This document shows, in pieces, positions 201-63,322 of a DNA stretch of 64,000 bases (within the stretch, counting starts at the first letter, position 1; every line of letters begins with the position of its first letter). The stretch is from Naegleria gruberi (Eukaryota). Location: assembly GCA_000004985.1 (NCBI GenBank), contig GG738861.1; one strand, 5' to 3'. The position numbers and the translations under genes were made by a program. The notes under the pieces were generated by a model, which saw only the letters and a program-made list of their open reading frames with translations, ran no database searches and was not told the DNA's origin.

Positions 201-3034
201 ATGTCTACAAAGGACGAAAGTGAATCACCACAAATTTCTGAAGAAAATACAGCTTCACCGCAAGCAACAAACTCTACCTATCAGAGAAGAATAGAATCTC
301 TTCATCAGGAGCACAATAACGGCATCAAAAACTACTTAATTACTTTGGATCCTGCCGAATATAAATGTTGGTCAACAGAGGAAATATGTGCATTGTTGGT
401 GTCGAGCAAATGTTTAGTGCTAGAAGATGTGCAACCACTACTTCAAGCCAAATTTAGAGGGGGAAGTATTGATAACATTATAATCGATATAAAACAAAAA
501 GCTGGAAACTTAGAAGCAATATACGAAATAGAGCATAGATCCTTCCCCTCTGTTCCAATAGACACCCTTAAAAGCGTCGTAAATTGGATCAACTTTAATC
601 TGATTCCAAACCTGTATCACAAATGGAGTGTTGCCCAAGTGAAAGAACTTTTGTGTTCAAATGGTGGATTGAGCGAACAAGAGTACTTGCCATTATGTGA
701 GATCTCAGGTCAAGACTTGGTGAAAATAGTTCCATATGTAATTGATTGTCAACATGTATATATTAGGGAAAAGAAAATAGAATTATCCCCAAAAGCTTGC
801 AAGAGAATTATTAGTACCCAATTCCACACTTTCCCAATAGAAAATTTACTATTTCAGTATGACATTGCTGGTCAAGAAAATAGACTCCTAAGACTAAAGA
901 AACTTGGAATTGTGTGCTACGACAAGAAAATGTTGGGTTGTGTTCATGATTTGCTGATACTCTTAGAAAAATTAGAAATTGCAATCCAAGAATATGAAAA
1001 AAGAAAAACAAGTTCAATATCTGTATTTAATGAGCAAATGGACAAGTTGGGTTTGAGCAAGTCAGATTCTTATATTTATTTATACCCTAAACTTGATTTT
1101 GAAGATGAAGATGAAGAAACCTCTTTTTCTTGCGAACACGTTGTGTGCTCATTTGCTCCAACATTTCCTTACAATAAGTATGAGGATAGAGAAACTTATT
1201 TAAAGAGAAGAAATGTATTGACATTTACAGAACCTCCAGGAACAGGAAAAACTCATTCTGCTTTTCACTTAACGAGTTGTGGGAGAATGGTAATTCCTGT
1301 ATCACCAAAGCATATTTCCAGATTATTTCAACAATTATCCTTTTGTGGTGATTCACGTTTTGATTTGGACAGAATCACCCAAAAATTCACAGAGTTTTAT
1401 CACAGATTGGGTTGTTTTTTGATCAAGTATGCTGAATTGTATGTAAGGGAGACTAATCCACTCTCTTCATCTTCCATAATGCAATATATTTTGAGATTCC
1501 TTTGGAGCGGTGGGGGAAACTGGATTGGTGAGCAAGATTTGAGACTTTTTCTTCTATTTTTCCTCAACCTCAGTATAATAGAACTGTTTGGATTTTAGAT
1601 GAGGTTCAATGTATTGATTATGAATGTGGTTTAAAGGTACCCCGTCGTGATGCTGAAAGTGGTGACGGTTCCTTGTTGACCTTACTAGTTTCTTGGCTGA
1701 GATTAAAGGGTGCAGTGGTGCTTACTACAACAAATTTCTCTGCAGTCAAAGGTAAAATTGAAAGATTAATTTCATCAGATACTGGAAAAGAGGTTTTGGA
1801 AAAGTGTTCATACGAATTCAAATTACTTCCACTGCTTAATCCAAAGCAAGTCATTGAGTTTTTGAGGTATTTCATTACGGTAGACTCAAGAAGATTGTGG
1901 GTTTATGTTTCCTTCTTTTTACAAGGCACAATAAGAAATGTTGAATCTTTCTTGCAGAAATTGTATTTTAAAGCAAGTGAAGAAAAAGCTGCAGGTTTAG
2001 GTGATGACTTTATATTGAGTGTTCTTCATTCTTTTTGTAGAGACAAGGTTTCACTTAAATTGAGTAGAAAGGAAGAAATGGGTTCAACATTTCCAAATTT
2101 TGAATACATATTTTACAAACTAGCAATAGCTGGGGAAGTTAATCTGCAAGAGTTAAATCTCACTGAAGAACAATGCGAACTAACCAAATTTTTAATTTGT
2201 AACGGAGTGAGCTTTATCTACATGCAAGAGTCTTATACATACAAGTTATCAAGTTGCCTTGAAAAAGGAAGAATGTTGAATTATGTATTTGACAAGTTTA
2301 CAAAGAAAAATTGGGTTGCAGAAATATTTACAATTTTAGTTAATAACAAGAATTCTACTTCCCAAGACATCTCATTGCTTGCAGAAGTATTTCTTGTAGA
2401 TATACTTATTAATCACTTTGGTTCATTAATTGCTCCACTTGTTAAAGGTTCATATGTCGACTCGTATGAATTACTGGCGAAGCACTATTTTGAAGATCCT
2501 CAATCATCTACCATCGATAAAGATAATGTTAAGATGTCTTCATTGATGATCGAATATCTTGCTGTCCAGACAAAGAGCAAGTATGACACAATCTGTCAAT
2601 TTTTGTCTCGCACAGGACAGTTTGCTGAAATTGACATACTGGGAATATTGTCAACAAAAGATAGCAAAAATTGTTTACCAAGCGCTATTCCACTAACTGT
2701 AGCCATTTCCAGAAGTAACGACAACCAGTCCAAGAAATTGAAAAAAGACTTTGCCAGTTCAATGTACAGAAATAACTCGACCAAAAGGAAGAGTGTAAGA
2801 ATGTTATTTCATCCTAATTGCTCATATTCAAAGAGTTTAAATGACAGAATTACTGAGGGAACGTTTAATAATGAAACAGAGAAGGTAACAATCAAACAGG
2901 TCCTTACAGACTATTCTGTAATTACTGGAGATGATCAGTGTGTTATTGAGATTAGTTCTGGAATTGAAAAACAATGGCCTGAATGGAAACCATTTATGGA
3001 CAGTTGGAGAAAGCTTTTTGTTGAGAATCAATAA
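201..3034 (+). CDS. Multi-domain protein: two N-terminal SAM-like repeats + P-loop NTPase (Walker A PPGTGKT, Walker B WIDEV) + long C-terminal helical region; at least one intron (~1529-1597, GTGAGC...TTTTAG) joining ORFs 201-1598 and 1673-3034
   Basis: ORF track 201..1598 and 1673..3034 in different frames; splicing GT..AG at ~1529/1597 restores frame giving ...GGNWIDEVQCIDYECG (hhhhDE Walker B) ~120 aa after Walker A LTFTEPPGTGKTHSAF; repeated motifs YKCWSTEEICALL...VVNWI and LYHKWSVAQVKELL resemble SAM-domain W-S-x-E-V-x-x-LL helices; paralogous to gene at 55497-57245. Confidence 0.55.
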
Positions 3035-53874: not shown

Positions 53875-54246
53875 AATAATTTATAATCTGGTGGAAAGTT
53901 ACACTTGGAGCTTAATGCTCTCATTTTTGAAAATGGCAGTCATTTCATTTTCTTTTGAATCAACAATGGATGCAAGTTTAAAGAATAAATGGATTGAACA
54001 AGCAATAAACTCAATACTGTAAAACCTTGTACGTAAGAAACAAGCGAGGGTAAATAAGTTATAAACGAACCAAATTACCAACCATACGCAGATAACTGAT
54101 TCACAAAGGCACTCAAATATTGATTTAATTTCATATAAGTTAGAGTGGAAACACCAAATTGAACTGGAATTTCACTTTCAATACCCATAAAATATCATCT
54201 TGAAATCAGCCTCTACTTCATTTTTATAAACTGTAATAACATCATC

Positions 54247-54441
54247 TCATAACTGTTCCCACCATTTGCTGTTGGAGCTATAATTGTCTAAGTAGAAAAG
54301 TTCAAAAACGGTTGAAGCAATCTCTTCATATTTTTCCCATCTGCCTGTATGAGCATTGATTTGAAAATTAATCATCTTTTGGTTCTCAGTAAAGTTCACT
54401 AAAAAACCATCAACATGTTGCTCATTTGGAAAGCACATCAT
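54247..54441 (-). CDS. Small ORF (64+ aa; reading frame open further upstream to ~54540), possible small protein gene
   Basis: MMCFPNEQHVDGFLVNFTENQKMINFQINAHTGRWEKYEEIASTVFELFYLDNYSSNSKWWEQL; non-low-complexity, frame stays open upstream (VYSIVVFKKHYFISVNFDKNTKSKAIDGI); no domain recognised. Confidence 0.2.
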   Translation of the reverse strand: MMCFPNEQHVDGFLVNFTENQKMINFQINAHTGRWEKYEEIASTVFELFYLDNYSSNSKWWEQL

Positions 54442-54789
54442 TATTCCATCAATAGCTTTGGATTTTGTGTTCTTATCGAAGTTTACTGAGATAAAGTAGT
54501 GTTTCTTGAAAACAACAATTGAATAAACTAATAATAGAAAGTATGCTCAAAAAAATTGTCATACTATGGTCCCACCCTTGCCCACCCTCTATTATTATTA
54601 GTTTATTCAAATCAAAGGTTCTAACCTTTGTCCTTAATACTTTGGAATGTGATTTTTTAACCAATCCTCAAATATTTTCTCAATTGATTGAAAGATTTCA
54701 CTTTATTTGTATTATTGAAAGATGATTGTTATCATCTTTTTATCTTTGTATTATTATTTGATATTTGACATCATTTATTGATGTTTTTT

Positions 54790-55040
54790 ATCATGATTGG
54801 TGATCTAAAACCAATTGTTGGTGATCTAAAACCGACAGATCAACTTTATGTTGATTAGAAGGTATCTGATACCTTTCCCTTACTATTAGTAAGGCAATAT
54901 GTACTGAACATACCTCTTTTCTCATTCTCGTTTTGATTCGTAAGTGTCAAGACGGTTGAGTAGGTTTTTTAATTCTTAACTTTTTGGTTTTTACCGATTT
55001 TTTTTTTTTTCCTACAAGAGTAGGTTTTTTTATATGGGAG
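54790..55040. repeat. Intergenic block with direct repeats and two adjacent 17-bp palindromes
   Basis: GGTGATCTAAAACC x2 (54799-54836); palindromes AAGGTATCTGATACCTT (~54858-54874) and CCTTACTATTAGTAAGG (~54884-54900); GAGTAGGTTTTTT x2 (54959/55019) flanking a T16 run. Confidence 0.5.
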
Positions 55041-55496
55041 TTGTTTCTCCAAAAAACAACTTGGTTTATTGTCAGATTGCTTTAATTTAGTTTAGTTTTT
55101 GCTTTTTGTTAAGAAATCATAGTATGATTGTATTGATTAGTTTATTTAATTTCTGGACCTGCTGAATAAAGCTTAATGCCTAAAAACAGCAGTAACCAGG
55201 CTACAAACTACCTAAGAATAGGTAGAAGTTGTAGTGTGAGCTTTATATCCATTAGTTTATTTATTGTTGGTTTTTTTTTAAGAAACATAAATAATGTTCC
55301 CAATAAAGTTTGCTAGGAGATGAGTATTGTGTTTTTAGACACATCCAAGCAGTAAAGTTTGTACCTACAGTATAAGTGTTTCAATAGTAAACACACAAAA
55401 TAAAGTTCAAATAATATTTAGACAATTGAATATTAAAACTCAGAAACCACCTTAATAATGAAACAACCTGGAATCTGCTTTGAAGGATATAAATCT

Positions 55497-57245
55497 TTAT
55501 TGAGCAGGATCCATTTTGAGATGAAGATGATATAGTATATTGTTTCCTTTGTGGAGTTCTTTTTTTGTTGAATAATAAGTAAGGTTGTTAATTAATGTTG
55601 CTTCTTGAGCAAGAATGTTCATCAGGGATCGCTGATTGCTACTTGGGTTAAGTAGTTTTGATAGAATGGAATATGATGAAGAAACGAAACTGTTTGCTTC
55701 ATCAATAGCAATAATAAAAGCTTGTGTTTCTTTAGTTTCTTTAAGCCCAAAATAATAACGATTATCTTTTAACAAATCTCCTATTTGCATAATAAGGTAA
55801 CCAGTATAGTCTCTTAAAGATTTTGAGTTGCAGTATTCATACTTTAGTAATTCTTTAAAAACTAATACACTTGCCAACTTGTCATTTGCTTGCATGTATG
55901 CTAAGTAAGGATAAAGTCCACCAAAATCTTTAAAAACATCCCTATTATTTTTGGCATGTTGGATGACTTTTAAAACATAAATCAGTCTTGCAATAAATAC
56001 CATCTGCACTATTTGATGAACACTTGCATACAAATCAATAAGGGTCTTTGATATCAAAACAGAATATGCTTCTCTCATCAACTCGTCGGCTACTATTGTA
56101 TCAACAGGCTCGCTCTTTAATGTACAGCTTAAATATATACCTGATACTGTTGACATTAATCTATTAATTGTTCTTAAACATTATTAATAGCTTGTTAGTT
56201 AGAAAATAAAAAGTACTTACCTGGTCTTACCGATGCCTGATGATTCTATTTCAATTTTTTCAAGTAATTTTTGTGTTAAATTTAATGGTAATTCTATATT
56301 TTTCCAACCAGTCATTATTAATCTTGCTCTTTCATAAAATTCTTCAACACACTCATACACCATTTTCCTTGTTAAATCTTTTTCTGAAAAATTGTTAATT
56401 TCATTCAATAGTTTCTTTGATAATTCAAATACGATAGAGTCACCCAATAACATCCCATGAGGAATGGTAATAATGAATCTCTCTAAATAATCAGTTATCT
56501 TTTTGTTACATTCCATGTTGGCACCAACAATGCTGCCTTTTTCAATCTTTAAATTATCAATTTCAAACTTGGTCAAACCAACACCGCCTTCATTAACAGG
56601 TTTACTAAGTTGCTCTCTAATTTTTTCAACTTCCCACAAATGATAGAGTCTTGTTTTGTATAAATCATCAACCCAATTTACAACAATATCCAATGTATCC
56701 AACAAGTCAACTGTTAAAGTATGGCCCGAGTTTTGGTATTTTGATTTGAGTTTTTGATAGGCATAATCTGTTCCCTTTTGTAAACCAACAACAATACAGG
56801 CAAGAGATTTACCATTAAAACTAGCCTTATATAATAGCTCGACATTACGAACGGTCAAACCGGCTCCTCCATTCTTCTGGTCAGTGCAAAGTAAGGCGCA
56901 TACTTCTTCTTTAGACCATAAATCATATTCCATTGGGTTTAATTTTGCGTAGGGTGATTCGGAAGTAGTAGGTATGGAATTTTGTTTTTGGTTAGAAATG
57001 TTATTATTACCCGTTGGAGTAGTGGAATAGTTTTTGGTGGAGTTATTGAATTGTGCTGCAAAATTGTTCTTAACTAAATAATAACAACTATTACAATTGT
57101 TCTTGTTATTAACTACAGATCTCCTAGAGTGAATATTCAAGTTTCCGATGGAGTTGTTAAATTGTTGAGTTTGAATGGTAGTTGGTTTTAAGGTAATTCG
57201 TTTTGATATTTTGTTAAACCATTTATTTTTCGTGAGCGATTTCAT
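55497..57245 (-). CDS. Paralogue of the 201-3034 gene: two SAM-like repeats + P-loop NTPase (Walker A SSGIGKTR at exon end, Walker B FIIAIDEANSF), 2 exons (56217-57245, 55497-~56156)
   Basis: YDLWSKEEVCALL...VVNWVDDLYKTRLYHLWEVEKIREQL parallels YKCWSTEEICALL...VVNWINFNLIPNLYHKWSVAQVKELL of gene 201-3034; exon1 ends ...ESSGIGKTR followed by GT donor; exon 2 continues NTPase. Confidence 0.55.
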
Positions 57246-57654: not shown

Positions 57655-58764
57655 ATGAAAAACAAACCTCAACAACAAAGAGGGCTCGGATTGGATGCAT
57701 ATAATTCCGATAATGAAGAAGGTGAATCCTCTTCATCATCTAATGCACCTTCGGAGGATTATAAATCAAAGAAAAAAGGAGTTGCCAATAAGAGGAGTCA
57801 AGAGGAAATTAAAAACAAAATTGTTACATTAACTAAAAAACGAAAACAAGACGTTGGAAGTAGCGAACAAAATTGTACAATTTCAAAAATTGATGATAGT
57901 TTCGATTCCTTCAAAACCTATATTTATTTACCTTGTAAATTTTTGGATGATTCCACGTCATTAATTGAGATGTTACTGAGGGATGTTCTTTATAGAGATC
58001 CGTATAATTTATTATTATTTTCACCTTGTACTACAGATCCGTTCTTTGTTGGACATCATGTGAGTCTTTCAAAGACATTTAATGTTAAAAAGAATTTAGC
58101 TTCTGAATTTAGACTCTCTTTGGGAGAGGTAATGCGAGTAAATACACGCCTTCCAATCAAGATTGCATTTAAAAGTATAAGCATGTATTTGGGATCCAAT
58201 GTAGCAGCAAAATCAGATATTACACCGACATATGCTATTTATTTAGCATTTGACTTGACAGATGAATACGAAGAAAGAATTGTATCTTCTCTTTCAAAAG
58301 CATTCTGTACCAAAGGTGATTATTTCGATAATGGAATGCATGCCTTAATTGACGAGGAAAGCTTATGGTTTTCCAAACTTCACGTATCGTTCGCATGTAG
58401 ATTATTCAAAGATAGGGAATCACAGGTTGAATATTACAAGGAATGCCTCACAAATATCAGCAAAATTGACTACCAGGATAATAGTGACTATCCAACATCT
58501 TTCAAAATTTGTTCCATTAACACAGCTGTACAACACATGGTTGGATCTGATCTTTCACAATCTAAAGAAAATAGAATAAGTGTCACAGATGCACGAAAGA
58601 AAATACTCTCCACAACACAAGTCGAAACAATTGAGATTGTAATGGGTTCCAAAACATTCAGCGTCGACATTCCTCATTTGGAAGAGCCTCAAATGATCAA
58701 AGAAACTTGGCAAATAACTTTGAGTATTAATAGGTCGGAAAGTGATTCAGATTCGGATGGTTAA
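57655..58764 (+). CDS. USB1: 2H phosphoesterase, USB1-like (U6 snRNA 3'-end processing phosphodiesterase) with acidic/basic N-terminal extension
   Basis: Two H-x-S-x motifs at appropriate spacing: FFVGHHVSLSK and WFSKLHVSFACRL (~90 aa apart), preceded by KRKQD-rich N-terminus; size of catalytic region ~250 aa. Confidence 0.5.
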   Translation: MKNKPQQQRGLGLDAYNSDNEEGESSSSSNAPSEDYKSKKKGVANKRSQEEIKNKIVTLTKKRKQDVGSSEQNCTISKIDDSFDSFKTYIYLPCKFLDDSTSLIEMLLRDVLYRDPYNLLLFSPCTTDPFFVGHHVSLSKTFNVKKNLASEFRLSLGEVMRVNTRLPIKIAFKSISMYLGSNVAAKSDITPTYAIYLAFDLTDEYEERIVSSLSKAFCTKGDYFDNGMHALIDEESLWFSKLHVSFACRLFKDRESQVEYYKECLTNISKIDYQDNSDYPTSFKICSINTAVQHMVGSDLSQSKENRISVTDARKKILSTTQVETIEIVMGSKTFSVDIPHLEEPQMIKETWQITLSINRSESDSDSDG

Positions 58765-59071: not shown

Positions 59072-62000
59072 ATGGTCACACTAATTGTCAATCCTGCCAA
59101 TAGGGATTGGTTGCCACCTTCTATTGTTGGTGGGCTATCAACCTCGGAAGCAGAAATGTTTGTCGATAAAAATTCTTCATGTGGATGTTCCTGCTCCTCA
59201 TGTCAATGTACCTCCGTTATCAAGGGATATTTTGATGATAGTGAGGAGGTGAGTGCAAATGCAGTTGCATCATCACCAGGTTGTGGATGTTCTTCATCAT
59301 GTTGCGGAACTTTAAATTCTGTTAATGCTGATAATACTTCTTCTTCTGTTAGTGGTAGTAATAGTTGTAGTACTACTAATAGTAGTGGAGGTGGTGGTGG
59401 TTGCATTGCTAATTGTTTCATGAAGAGAATTAGACAAATTTATCACTTTGAAATTGTTTTGGTTCGTAGAAAGAATGAAAATATGAATGCTTTGGAAATT
59501 ATTGAAAGTTTAAAGGATCAAGCATTCATTTCCATTGCTGAAAATGAACAAGAATTGAAGGTCTATGTTTCTGGATATGTTTCCTTGTTTGAATTGATGA
59601 GAAATTTGTATGAAAATAACAAGAAACAATTTCGTATCAAGAGTGCAAGAACTATGAAAGTTCACCAAGTTAAATTTGATGATTCCTGTAAGATGAAATG
59701 TAGAGGATGCAGTTCTCGTGTTGAAAAGGCTTTTGCTGATATGGATGATATTGCTCATTTGTATTGTGATTTAGATGATCAAACTGTCATCTTCTTTTTC
59801 AATAAGGAGAATACTAGATCTTTGATTAATGATATTCTTACAAATGATTTGAAAAAGACTTTTAATATTTTGAATACTGATATTGAAATTCAAAATCATC
59901 CATCTCAAGATGACAATACTTCTCTCACTTTGAAAGTTGAAGGAATGAGATGTGGAGGTTGTAGCTCAAAGGTTAAAAAATTGTTAAAAGAGAGCTATGG
60001 TACTGAAAATGTTGATATTGATCTCAATTCTAAAAAGGTAATTGTTAGAGGTGTTGATGCCAAATTAGAATCAAAGATTATTGAAGATATTGAAATGTTG
60101 GGCTTTACTTGTTCCAGATTTTCTGAATACAAGGAACACAACATTACTGTTAATGGTATGAAATGTGGAGGATGTAAGAATAAGATTACCAAAGCTCTTG
60201 AATCTGATGAAAAGATTCACTTTGTGGATGTTAATTTGGAAAGCAAACTCGTTAGTGTTCAATGTGATTATGAGGAACCTGGTCCAATTATTCAAAAAAT
60301 TGAAGAGCTTGGTTTTACTTGTGAAGGAAAGGTAGAAATTTATTCTGTAAAGACTTCCAAATCTGTTCCAACTTCTTCCTACAGAAAGGAAGTTGAGGAG
60401 GATCGTTCCTTCTATCAACCATCACCAACAAGTGAAATGAATCAATACTCTGCTATTGATCTACACGAAGATGGTGATGAAGAAATTGAGATGCATGATG
60501 TGAGATTACTCTCCAATAAGGAGGGTGCCAATGTACCTCATGATGAATCAGCTGAACACTCATCTAATAAGAAGTGTGTTCTCTCCATTGACGGAATGAG
60601 TTGTGCCTCATGTGTTTCCAAGATTGAGAGAAATGTTAGAGAATTGAACGGTGTCAGCAAGTGCTCAGTCAATCTCATCATGCAAAAAGGTGAAATTTTA
60701 TATGATGAGTCTGTCATTTCAGAACGTGAGTTGATAAAGAAGGTCGAATCTCTTGGTTTTCAAGTTACCAGTCTAACTGATCAGCTCAATAATGAAAAGA
60801 ACAAGCTCATGGTTAGTATCGGCACATCAAGTAAGGAATCTTTTGTTGATTTCCTCACTGGTGTTAAAGGAGTTTTTGATATTGGACAAAGTGTTGAAGA
60901 TGGTAATCCTAACAATACCATTCTTACCATTCTATTCGATGATAAGACAACCAAATGCAGAACTATCTTTGACCAGCTTGTTCATAAAGCTGCAGAAGGT
61001 CAATTGGGTGAGGTCAAGATTGTTAAATCTTCCTTGATGAAGAACCAGATGGATACTCTCCAAAGAAAACATGAAATTAGAAAATGGGCTTTTTATTTTG
61101 GATTTTCTGCTCTATTGACCATTCCTGCAATGGTTCTCATGATGTTATTTGGTAATATTCATTACACCAAGATGGCACTCATGAATGAGGTCTTCCCTGG
61201 CTTATCTATCATGAGCTTGGTCATGTTTTTACTTGTTACTCCAGTTCAAATCATTGGTGGATATCCGTTCTATCTCCTCTCTTTGAAAGCATTGAAATCC
61301 TTCTCTTTGGATATGAATGTTCTCATTGCTATTGCTACTACTGAGGCTTATGGTTACTCTCTCTTTACCAATATTTACAATTTGAGTGTTGGAAAGATTA
61401 CAATTGAACATGATTACTTTGAGACAGCTGCTGCATTGATCATGTTCTTGTCACTTGGTAGATTGTTAGAAAGTGTTGCCAAGGGAAAGACCTCATCTGC
61501 CCTAGTTACTCTTTTGGATCTTCAACCAAGTGTTGCCATTCTCGTTGGTGAAAATAATACTGAGAGCGAAATTGATGTTGATCTAGTTCAAGAGGGTGAT
61601 ATTTTGAAAGTCATTCGTGCCTCAAAGGTTCCTGTCGATGGTGTTATTGTCTCTCTCGATGGTGATGCCCTCGTTGATGAACAAATGATTACTGGTGAAT
61701 CAATGCCAGTCACTAAGAAAGTTGGTTCTGAAGTTATTGGTGGCACTGTCAATGTTGGTGATACCTATTTCTTTATGAGAGCTACTCGTGTTGGCTCCGA
61801 TAGTACTCTCTCTGGAATAGCCAAACTTGTTGAACAAGCCCAAACTGACAAGCCACAAATTCAAGGATTGGCTGATAAGGTCTCTGCTTGGTTTGTTCCA
61901 CTTGTTATCATTCTCAGTCTTGTAGTATTTGCTGTTTGGGCCATTTTGGGAGCTTTTAACTTGTATCCAAAGGAGTGGAGAGCTGACGATATGAGCCCTT

Positions 62001-63139
62001 ACATTTTTGCACTCCTATTGAGTACATCGACTGTTATCATTTCTTGTCCGTGTGCTCTTGGATTGGCTGTTCCAACTGCAACAATGGTTGGTACTGGATT
62101 AGGTGCTAAACATGGTATTCTCATTAAGGGAGGAAGTCCAATTGAAATTGTCAAGAAGGCCACATGTGTAACCTTTGATAAGACTGGTACTTTAACAAAG
62201 GGAGAGTTGGTTGTTGATCAAATTGAAATGTTTGACACTGATGTTTCAGATGATGATATTTTCAGATGGACAGCAGTTGCCGAGTCAAGCAGTGAACACC
62301 CAATTGGTAAGGCCATTGTCAAGTATTGTAAGCAACATTCAAGTCATAGTGAGGATACATTTGTAAAGACATCTGGAACCATGTCTGAATTTAGTGCAGT
62401 TTCTGGAAGAGGTCTCACTTGCATTATTGAGGGAAAGAGAGTTGATATTGGAAATGAACAATTCATGTATGATCAACATGTGAACATGATGTCATTCAGC
62501 GATTCTAGTCGTTATCAAACTCTAGTATTTGTTTCAATTGACAAAAAGTTGAAGGCTCTTTTCAGTTTATCAGATGAAGTCAGAGAAGAATCCTATCAAG
62601 TTGTTAGTGAATTACAAAAGAAGGGTCTCAAAGTTTACATGCTCACCGGCGATAATCAATGTGTAGCCAATTTTGTTGGTGACAAATTGGGTATTCCACA
62701 AGAAAATATCTTTTCACAACTCACTCCAGTTGGAAAGACCAACAAGGTTAAGGAATTACAAGAATCCAAGGAAATTGTCATTATGATTGGAGATGGTATC
62801 AATGATTCACCATCTCTCATTCAGGCTGATGTTGGTATCTCAGTTGGTCAGGGAACAGATGTTGCCATTGAATGTGCTCAAATTATCTTGATGAAAAATG
62901 ATTTGAGAGCTCTCCTCTCCACCATTTCACTCTGCAGAAGTATCTATAATAGAATTGTTATGAATTTTGTTTGGGCATTTGGATATAATATTATTGCCAT
63001 TCCATTTGCTGCTGGTATTTTCTTCCCATTGATTCAAGTTATGATCCCACCTTGGGTTGCAGGTATTGCCATGGTTTCATCTTCTATTTGTGTATTGCTT
63101 TCTTCTCTTTCTTTGAGATTTCACAAGATGAAATATTAA
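59072..63139 (+). CDS. CCC2: Copper-transporting P1B-type ATPase (ATP7/Ccc2-like) with Cys-rich N-terminus and four heavy-metal-associated domains
   Basis: HMA motifs MKCRGCSSRV, GMRCGGCSSKV, GMKCGGCKNKI, GMSCASCVSKI; TGES, CPC (SCPCALGLAVPTA), DKTGTLT, HP (SEHPIGKAI), GDGINDSP, 8 TM helices; single 1355-aa exon. Confidence 0.95.
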   Translation: MVTLIVNPANRDWLPPSIVGGLSTSEAEMFVDKNSSCGCSCSSCQCTSVIKGYFDDSEEVSANAVASSPGCGCSSSCCGTLNSVNADNTSSSVSGSNSCSTTNSSGGGGGCIANCFMKRIRQIYHFEIVLVRRKNENMNALEIIESLKDQAFISIAENEQELKVYVSGYVSLFELMRNLYENNKKQFRIKSARTMKVHQVKFDDSCKMKCRGCSSRVEKAFADMDDIAHLYCDLDDQTVIFFFNKENTRSLINDILTNDLKKTFNILNTDIEIQNHPSQDDNTSLTLKVEGMRCGGCSSKVKKLLKESYGTENVDIDLNSKKVIVRGVDAKLESKIIEDIEMLGFTCSRFSEYKEHNITVNGMKCGGCKNKITKALESDEKIHFVDVNLESKLVSVQCDYEEPGPIIQKIEELGFTCEGKVEIYSVKTSKSVPTSSYRKEVEEDRSFYQPSPTSEMNQYSAIDLHEDGDEEIEMHDVRLLSNKEGANVPHDESAEHSSNKKCVLSIDGMSCASCVSKIERNVRELNGVSKCSVNLIMQKGEILYDESVISERELIKKVESLGFQVTSLTDQLNNEKNKLMVSIGTSSKESFVDFLTGVKGVFDIGQSVEDGNPNNTILTILFDDKTTKCRTIFDQLVHKAAEGQLGEVKIVKSSLMKNQMDTLQRKHEIRKWAFYFGFSALLTIPAMVLMMLFGNIHYTKMALMNEVFPGLSIMSLVMFLLVTPVQIIGGYPFYLLSLKALKSFSLDMNVLIAIATTEAYGYSLFTNIYNLSVGKITIEHDYFETAAALIMFLSLGRLLESVAKGKTSSALVTLLDLQPSVAILVGENNTESEIDVDLVQEGDILKVIRASKVPVDGVIVSLDGDALVDEQMITGESMPVTKKVGSEVIGGTVNVGDTYFFMRATRVGSDSTLSGIAKLVEQAQTDKPQIQGLADKVSAWFVPLVIILSLVVFAVWAILGAFNLYPKEWRADDMSPYIFALLLSTSTVIISCPCALGLAVPTATMVGTGLGAKHGILIKGGSPIEIVKKATCVTFDKTGTLTKGELVVDQIEMFDTDVSDDDIFRWTAVAESSSEHPIGKAIVKYCKQHSSHSEDTFVKTSGTMSEFSAVSGRGLTCIIEGKRVDIGNEQFMYDQHVNMMSFSDSSRYQTLVFVSIDKKLKALFSLSDEVREESYQVVSELQKKGLKVYMLTGDNQCVANFVGDKLGIPQENIFSQLTPVGKTNKVKELQESKEIVIMIGDGINDSPSLIQADVGISVGQGTDVAIECAQIILMKNDLRALLSTISLCRSIYNRIVMNFVWAFGYNIIAIPFAAGIFFPLIQVMIPPWVAGIAMVSSSICVLLSSLSLRFHKMKY

Positions 63140-63249: not shown

Positions 63250-63322
63250 CGCCCCACGTGGGGCTCGAACCCACGACCGTTGGATTAAAAGTCCAACGCT
63301 CTACCGACTGAGCTAGCGGGGC
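63250..63322 (-). tRNA. tRNA-Lys (anticodon UUU), no encoded CCA, no intron
   Basis: Minus-strand read GCCCCGC-TA-GCTC-AGTCGGTA-GAGC-G-TTGGA-CTTTTAA-TCCAA-CGGTC-GTGGG-TTCGAGC-CCCAC-GTGGGGC-G: 7-bp acceptor (one G-U), D arm, anticodon loop CUUUUAA, T arm GGGTTCGAGCCC; 73 nt. Confidence 0.85.

Follow-up and report, generated by a model that had tools for sequence, protein, structure and literature searches.

An apparently vahlkampfiid-restricted family of AAA+-type ATPases with a probably SAM-like N-terminal module, seen from two genes of Naegleria gruberi

The two genes and their shared N-terminal module

The window analysed here, a stretch of 64,000 nucleotides of the nuclear genome of Naegleria gruberi (GenBank assembly GCA_000004985.1, contig GG738861.1), carries two genes, hereafter gene A (201–3034, + strand) and gene B (55497–57245, − strand), in both of which a short helical module at the N-terminus is followed by a P-loop NTPase. 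An earlier note on this DNA had interpreted them as a divergent pair of paralogues, in which two SAM-type adaptor repeats are fused to an NTPase in an architecture reminiscent of STAND/NLR-type switches; the open reading frames (ORFs) were indeed found at these coordinates, in DNA whose GC content of 30–38% is that of an AT-rich eukaryotic genome. Gene A consists of two long ORFs lying in different frames of the + strand (201–1598 and 1673–3034), and its homologue search, as well as a search with a 20-sequence alignment, returned a single protein (P0001, 896 residues, “predicted protein [Naegleria gruberi]”). For gene B, the same search brought up no protein from NCBI, where none appears to be annotated; its sole near-identical relative is a pair of ORFs in an environmental assembly (locus L002, ERR1078381), with about 98.5% nucleotide identity.

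The resemblance of the two N-termini is far beyond chance. By BLASTP, residues 49–158 of gene A and 102–223 of gene B are 31% identical (E=2e-14), and a family hidden Markov model (HMM), built from the first units of 13 family members, recognizes the two genes at 1e-26 and 1e-37, respectively, and unit 1 of each with independent E-values (iE) of 8.5e-28 and 7e-39, and matches no further ORF within the window. All the motifs on which the resemblance had originally been based are present, namely WSTEEICALL in gene A and WSKEEVCALL in gene B, VVNWI and VVNWV, LYHKWSV and LYHLWEV. In gene A, unit 1 (residues 49–135; 345–605, + strand; WSTEEICALL ... VVNWIN) is directly followed by a second, more divergent tandem unit (residues 136–211; 606–833, + strand; LYHKWSVAQVKELL ...; iE 4e-4). 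In gene B, unit 1 (residues 102–198; 56652–56942, − strand) is followed only by a stub of 32 residues (201–232; 56550–56645, − strand; iE 0.005), so that the two-repeat layout proposed for both proteins holds for gene A, but in gene B is reduced to one full unit and a remnant of the second.

Beyond this module, the similarity does not continue, the P-loop being all that BLASTP, phmmer and hhalign reveal in common. When the rest of gene B was searched by phmmer, only its own orthologues were found and nothing in gene A; hhalign of the A subfamily (gene A and its orthologues) against gene B, with or without the gene B orthologue, aligned 16–17 columns around the P-loop and nothing else (E 0.04–0.05). 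On these comparisons genes A and B share a domain, the adaptor, and not the whole gene: the proposal of an adaptor-like N-terminal module common to both, followed in each by a P-loop NTPase, is borne out, and that of a full-length paralogue pair has to be abandoned. The shared module, of about 90 residues, is helical, family-specific and previously undescribed.

Concerning its fold, the AlphaFold2 model of residues 40–235 of gene A (alignment of 21 rows) has a mean predicted local distance difference test score (pLDDT) of 80.9, exceeding 90 across unit 1, which comprises six helices; unit 2 is also modelled as helical, with a pLDDT of about 85 dropping towards its end. The list of structural neighbours returned by Foldseek, non-significant as a whole, is enriched in SAM domains and in Nab2-N. 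Among 21 N-terminal segments, one gave a SAM_Exu match at E=0.18, to be regarded as noise, and when PDB sequences were searched with a profile of the N-terminus, the sole match was to 15 residues of liprin-beta-1, a protein with SAM domains (E=0.49). The SAM-type assignment thus stands in part: there is moderate support for a module that is SAM-like in fold, but membership of the SAM superfamily cannot be demonstrated for it, and where the module is called SAM-like below, an identity as a SAM domain is presumed at most.

Gene A: reading frame, ATPase and C-terminal parts

The alignment of the A subfamily shows, between the Walker A and Walker B motifs, a conserved helix ending in hWNGG (h, hydrophobic) and, about 25 residues further on, a strand of the type hhhhDE. 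In gene A, the counterpart of the helix is read in frame 0 (FLWSGGGNWIGEQDLRLF; FLWSGGG at 1497) and that of the strand in frame 2 (...SSIFPQPQYNRTVWILDEVQC; VWILDEV at 1586–1606, + strand). The addition of a single T to the run of five T at 1546–1550 (+ strand), where frame 0 would pass into frame 2, gives a continuous frame of 944 residues over 201–3034, which aligns without gaps with all the orthologues, from N. fowleri, N. lovaniensis, Willaertia and environmental assemblies. Two spliced models were considered and rejected: the intron of 143 nucleotides annotated by NCBI (1439–1581; P0001) deletes the WSGGG/WNGG helix conserved in all the orthologues, and a splice from 1527 to 1599 (920 residues) yields NWIDEV and loses the beta strand, so that the single-base correction is favoured. 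Both this junction, which was that of the earlier note, and the NCBI intron are artefacts, since both of them bridge a frameshift; WIDEV, formerly quoted as the Walker B motif of gene A, is a product of joining 1527 to 1599, the true motif being VWILDEV in frame 2, and the public model of the gene is probably wrong, given that its intron takes out a conserved helix. Because the downstream frame remains open for more than 1,400 nucleotides in AT-rich DNA, the shift seems more likely to reflect an error in the assembly, or a mutation of very recent date, than a pseudogene of long standing. The 465-residue frame-0 ORF, looked up by exact match in other assemblies, was not on record there, and a scan of JGI metagenome contigs revealed no relatives of gene A.

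In the repaired frame, the landmarks of the NTPase follow each other on the + strand: the TFPxxKY motif conserved in the A subfamily (1161–1181), lying just upstream of the P-loop, the Walker A motif PPGTGKTH (1233–1256), the Walker B motif VWILDEV, a strand 4 or sensor-1-like motif VVLTTT (1715–1732; VILTTT in the orthologues) and a lid-helix motif FLQGTIR (1916–1936), which in the orthologues reads FLQGPxR and resembles the GxP motif of STAND proteins. Across the gene A orthologues, both Walker motifs, the sensor-1-like TTT and the QGP of the lid are conserved. A Walker A of the form GxxxxGK[ST] and a Walker B of the form hhhhD[DE], by which a STAND-type P-loop NTPase would be recognized, are found in both genes (PPGTGKTH and VWILDEV in gene A; SSGIGKTR and FIIAIDEA in gene B) and are retained in their orthologues; apart from WIDEV, the Walker motifs quoted for the two genes (PPGTGKTH, SGIGKTR, FIIAIDEA) are therefore present as described. 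The unusually long spacing between them is equally confirmed, amounting to 117 residues in repaired gene A (K350 to D467) and to 155 in gene B.

P0001, in which 48 residues of the ATPase insert are missing, was modelled over residues 225–896 with AlphaFold2 on a 10-row alignment; the pLDDT is 64 overall and about 70–85 in the core of the ATPase and over parts of the C-terminal domain. The model consists, in order, of a long helix, a disordered acidic linker, the beta-alpha P-loop core, a four-helix lid carrying FLQGTIR, a helix-helix-hairpin element that is probably a winged helix, further helices and a final alpha/beta domain. The region after the ATPase, formerly described as some 450 residues of helical sequence, does contain helices, but also, according to the model, the lid, the probable winged helix and the C-terminal alpha/beta domain. 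The latter (2357–3031, + strand) was delimited from modelled secondary structure and motif comparison; it shows an E-helix (LLAEVF) and a D-strand (AEIDILG, 2624–2644), and has no match in Pfam or in the PDB.

The fold of the gene A ATPase, as modelled, is of the AAA+ type, a non-AAA+ fold being ruled out. Its structural neighbours (scores in brackets) include the STAND proteins EfAvs5 (8.9), CED-4 (8.0; 283 residues aligned), Avs4 (7.8; 278 residues) and MalT (7.6), the archaeal ATPase_2 proteins PAB2304 (8.4) and SSO1545 (7.8), ORC/Cdc6, RFC, IstB, MuB and DnaA, and classical AAA proteins such as Trip13-like proteins, Vps4 and p97; this list does not separate STAND from ORC-like AAA+ proteins. 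Searches of PDB sequences, either with the single sequence or with a profile of the ATPase plus C-terminus, gave no match.

Gene B: an intron-containing, truncated copy

Gene B encodes 562 residues on the − strand, in two exons (57245–56221 and 56160–55497) separated by an intron of 60 nucleotides (56220–56161) with GT..AG borders. The intron splits the Walker A motif SSGIGKTR (56160–56243); the Walker B motif FIIAIDEA lies at 55695–55718. In an orthologue (P0003), the ORF stops after the very same GKTR, consistent with an intron position shared by the two genes. The N-terminal 95 residues (56961–57245, − strand) are free of aspartate and glutamate, contain 13 lysines and arginines and end near a conserved KNYST, and look like an organellar presequence.

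At its other end, gene B appears incomplete. Exon 2 is 72% identical to the orthologous locus of another Naegleria (L001) up to “...QEATLINN”, corresponding to window position 55578 (− strand), where the similarity ends in both the protein and the DNA comparison, at the same base. The L001 ORF extends about 200 residues past this breakpoint, starting from the sensor-1 strand FSIALYAGT, and this extension has no counterpart in the whole window. Gene B is also without some 65 residues that the orthologue carries just before the P-loop, including QPNFDPKYF, the counterpart of the TFPxxKY motif. The 1.7 kb or so downstream of the breakpoint (about 53875–55580) contain no long ORF and resemble neither the orthologous locus nor any other part of the window; when the six-frame translations of the downstream DNA were searched for the missing exons with the HMMs of the subfamilies described below, nothing significant emerged, and an ORF at 54441–54247, entertained as a “G-x-D ... 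QxK” remnant, was discarded, being unsupported by these HMMs.

The truncation is real, because the independent environmental strain represented by L002 has the same two gene B ORFs and the same stop codon; on these comparisons gene B is a 3'-truncated copy. Between L002 and gene B, 25 of the 1,689 exon positions differ (1.5%; 10 synonymous and 14 non-synonymous codons), as do 4 of the 60 intron positions (6.7%), and some constraint may still act on the shortened gene.

A family of Naegleria and Willaertia

A HMMER scan of 1.84 billion representative proteins gave 27 matches at E<=1e-3. All the members with a named organism come from N. fowleri (at least eight genes), N. lovaniensis, Willaertia magna and N. 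gruberi, the remainder being from environmental assemblies; the relatives from N. fowleri, N. lovaniensis and Willaertia are annotated merely as “hypothetical”. By this search, the two genes belong to a small multigene family restricted to the vahlkampfiid amoebae Naegleria and Willaertia, and no earlier account of such a family came up when the literature was checked. Some of the N. fowleri members are clustered, FDP41_011171 adjoining FDP41_011172, and FDP41_012640 and FDP41_012661 sharing one contig, which suggests local duplication.

Six to ten of the 27 matches are full-length or partial A-type proteins, and the others share with gene A the N-terminal module alone, present in the family in one to three tandem copies according to the family HMM. 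Indeed, besides the B type carried by gene B, four further types of ATPase were distinguished by their Walker motifs, in subfamilies C (FGFGKTR ... YFVVIDE), D (AAPGVGKSR ... FFIAIDEAH), E (GGSGSGKSR ... ILAFDEFQ) and F (GQVHTGKT ... IFIVLDE). Subfamilies D and E are the sole pair that can be aligned over the full length (hhalign 95.9%, 518 columns), the other pairs matching at the motifs alone; judged from these alignments, no fewer than five ATPase modules, all very divergent from one another, are combined with the N-terminal module, gene B carrying one of them. The relatives have weak Pfam matches in the STAND/ORC-like part of the P-loop clan, among them AAA_22 (29 bits against a cut-off of 27, in P0015), NPHP3_N (23.5 against 24.8 bits), ATPase_2 (E=5e-4) and AAA_16, which stays below threshold (E 0.004–0.02; 0.004 for the gene B orthologue); none of NACHT, NB-ARC, nSTAND, AAA_16 and NPHP3_N reaches threshold in gene A or its relatives. 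Scans of the two genes and of relatives with the NCBIfam models likewise produced no match above threshold.

Most full-length members begin, as gene B does, with 40–95 residues free of aspartate and glutamate, containing 7–16 lysines and arginines and ending near (K/R)NYS(T/S). Such a start is seen in gene B, in its orthologue (L001:4881-5040) and in P0004, P0015, P0020–23, P0025, P0028 and P0029, and is absent from gene A, whose N-terminus is acidic. We take this extension to resemble a presequence of the mitochondrial type with an R-3 processing site.

The C-terminal ends vary as well. Subfamilies C, D and E display an E-helix, a “G-x-D” strand and a “hhhhQxK” element, of which K, D, Q and K are invariant throughout subfamilies D and E, a pattern presumably comparable to that of Mrr-type PD-(D/E)xK nucleases; gene A and its orthologues retain the E-helix and the D-strand, without QxK. 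By hhalign, subfamilies A, C and D/E showed no detectable relationship in their C-terminal domains, and a nuclease fold received no support from Pfam, from the PDB (including a search with a profile of the D/E C-terminus) or from hhalign. Subfamily D ends in a ComEA-like helix-hairpin-helix (P0016, residues 877–937; P0021, residues 800–853), matched by HHH_3 (E=1e-3) and TIGR01259 (E=2e-4), below the Pfam thresholds, which hints at DNA binding.

Surroundings of the two genes

The neighbouring genes in the window are ordinary, coding for an apyrase, a protein kinase and a copper P-type ATPase. Gene B is adjoined by an ORF of 369 residues (57655–58764, + strand), with an acidic, serine-rich N-terminus and no Pfam match at E<=1e-5; directly downstream of the copper P-type ATPase gene (59072–63139), a tRNA-Lys (UUU) is found at 63250–63322 on the − strand.

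Interpretation and alternative explanations

The reading that we favour, with moderate confidence, is that the family consists of lineage-restricted, AAA+/STAND-like nucleotide-dependent switches, in which a new and probably SAM-like tandem module, having been recombined with more than one lineage of ATPase (several in all), would act as the homotypic adaptor. It starts from what the comparisons and models give directly, namely the family, its modularity, its motifs and the AAA+-type fold; STAND-type switching would be a further step, as would any role in immunity or cell death. In the proposed scheme, one to three helical modules in tandem are fused to an NTPase with three parts, the base that binds the nucleotide, a lid of helices and what is probably a winged helix, after which come the helical region and the C-terminal alpha/beta domain. 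The proteins would act as nucleotide-dependent switches or oligomerisation proteins: binding of the nucleoside triphosphate would drive assembly, the SAM-like units would mediate homotypic contacts or bring in partners, and the C-terminal part might sense or act on a target, possibly nucleic acid.

Several results weigh against this reading. As to the adaptor, no SAM model of Pfam matches gene A, gene B or 13 full-length relatives at E<=1, and Foldseek returned nothing significant with the model of the module (best E=0.8, TM-scores, i.e., template modelling scores, of 0.40–0.49). As to the switch, the best match of gene A to profiles of the STAND type (NACHT, NB-ARC, nSTAND) is nSTAND3 at E=0.097, with 12.8 bits against a cut-off of 27.2. 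The C-terminal sensor that the comparison with STAND/NLR proteins had led one to expect was not encountered in its usual repeat form: Pfam scans detected no repeat family (LRR, TPR, WD40 or HEAT), and the model shows helices and then the alpha/beta domain. The PADLOC defence models gave no match; the presequence-like N-terminus of most members is ill-suited to a cytosolic receptor; and both copies in the window look defective, and may be non-functional.

The main alternative is that the proteins are imported into an organelle, probably the mitochondrion, by way of the presequence-like starts, where the ATPase would load or remodel DNA or RNA and the C-terminal domain would be an Mrr-like PD-(D/E)xK nuclease, or an inactive derivative of it, in the service of genome maintenance or organelle quality control. 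The acid-free, basic N-termini of most full-length members, gene B included, the ComEA-like end of subfamily D, the E-helix, G-x-D and hhhhQxK pattern of subfamilies C, D and E, and the presence of ORC/Cdc6, RFC, IstB, MuB and DnaA among the structural neighbours all argue in this direction; yet gene A has an acidic N-terminus and no QxK, the nuclease fold finds no support in Pfam, the PDB or hhalign, and the helix-hairpin-helix matches fall short of the Pfam thresholds. We regard such an organellar role as possible rather than probable; moreover, it is compatible with a STAND-like switch and does not exclude it. A bolder proposal combines the two: vahlkampfiid amoebae, as members of Discoba, would have an independent NLR-like repertoire, with the SAM-like adaptor in variable copies on fast-diverging STAND-type ATPases, some with Mrr-like nuclease or helix-hairpin-helix ends and most with a mitochondrial-type presequence, and this repertoire would act in conflict or cell death at the mitochondrion or inside it. 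This we consider doubtful.

Two further explanations are unlikely. The family is multicopy and lineage-restricted, and one copy in the window is frameshifted and the other truncated, as might be expected of the decaying remnants of a selfish or mobile element whose helper ATPase, of the IstB or MuB kind, had multiplied. What makes this quite improbable is that no transposase was found and that the region downstream of gene B is not repeated elsewhere in the window, that the flanking genes (apyrase, kinase, copper ATPase) are ordinary, that the break of the P0003 ORF after the same GKTR codons is consistent with a conserved intron, that the structure of gene B is identical in a second strain with exons more conserved than the intron, and that the scores of IstB and MuB do not exceed those of other AAA+ proteins. 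That gene A is simply a housekeeping AAA+ paralogue of the RFC, ORC or Cdc48 type with a fast-evolving N-terminus is very improbable and largely refuted already: there is no Pfam match to AAA (PF00004), RFC or ORC and no PDB sequence match, even by profile, the 27 relatives among 1.84 billion proteins come, where the organism is named, from two genera only, and the spacing of 117 residues between the Walker motifs is atypical. An ordinary housekeeping paralogue is ruled out by the lack of a Pfam AAA/RFC match taken together with the very narrow taxonomic range and the list of structural neighbours.

Comparison with known systems and significance

A fusion of SAM and NTPase domains is not without precedent, the combination of SAM and STAND being known in SAMD9/9L (PMC5445408). 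SAMD9 and SAMD9L are antiviral STAND-like NTPases of vertebrates whose N-terminus carries a SAM domain; the Naegleria proteins differ from them in keeping an intact GKT and in having none of the other domains of SAMD9, and no sequence relationship is detectable. In SARM1/TIR-1, a mitochondrial signal is followed by ARM, tandem SAM and TIR domains; there, the SAM units form an octameric ring and the effector is the TIR NADase, no P-loop NTPase being present. Compared with the STAND NTPases proper (Apaf-1/CED-4, NLRs, bacterial Avs, MalT), the Naegleria family has neither a Pfam STAND match above threshold nor an LRR, WD40 or TPR sensor, and carries TTT at the sensor-1 position where STAND proteins have TTR; in gene A, QGT replaces the QGP of the orthologues. 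Finally, the matches of the family to archaeal ATPase_2 (PF01637; PAB2304, 2qen; SSO1545, 2fna) and to ORC/Cdc6 with its winged helix are below the Pfam thresholds; gene A itself has no ATPase_2 match, and the archaeal ATPase_2 and ORC/Cdc6 proteins have another taxonomic range and no SAM-like N-terminus.

Two domains without a current family assignment are defined by this analysis, of which one is the N-terminal module and the other the ATPase of the A type together with its C-terminal domain. Both occur in the human pathogen Naegleria fowleri, where the members, at least eight in number, are annotated as hypothetical only. If the reading of the family as nucleotide-dependent switches is true, a lineage of Discoba would join those eukaryotes in which STAND-type ATPases are coupled to a homotypic adaptor, and this would bear on the repeated origin of NLR-like logic.

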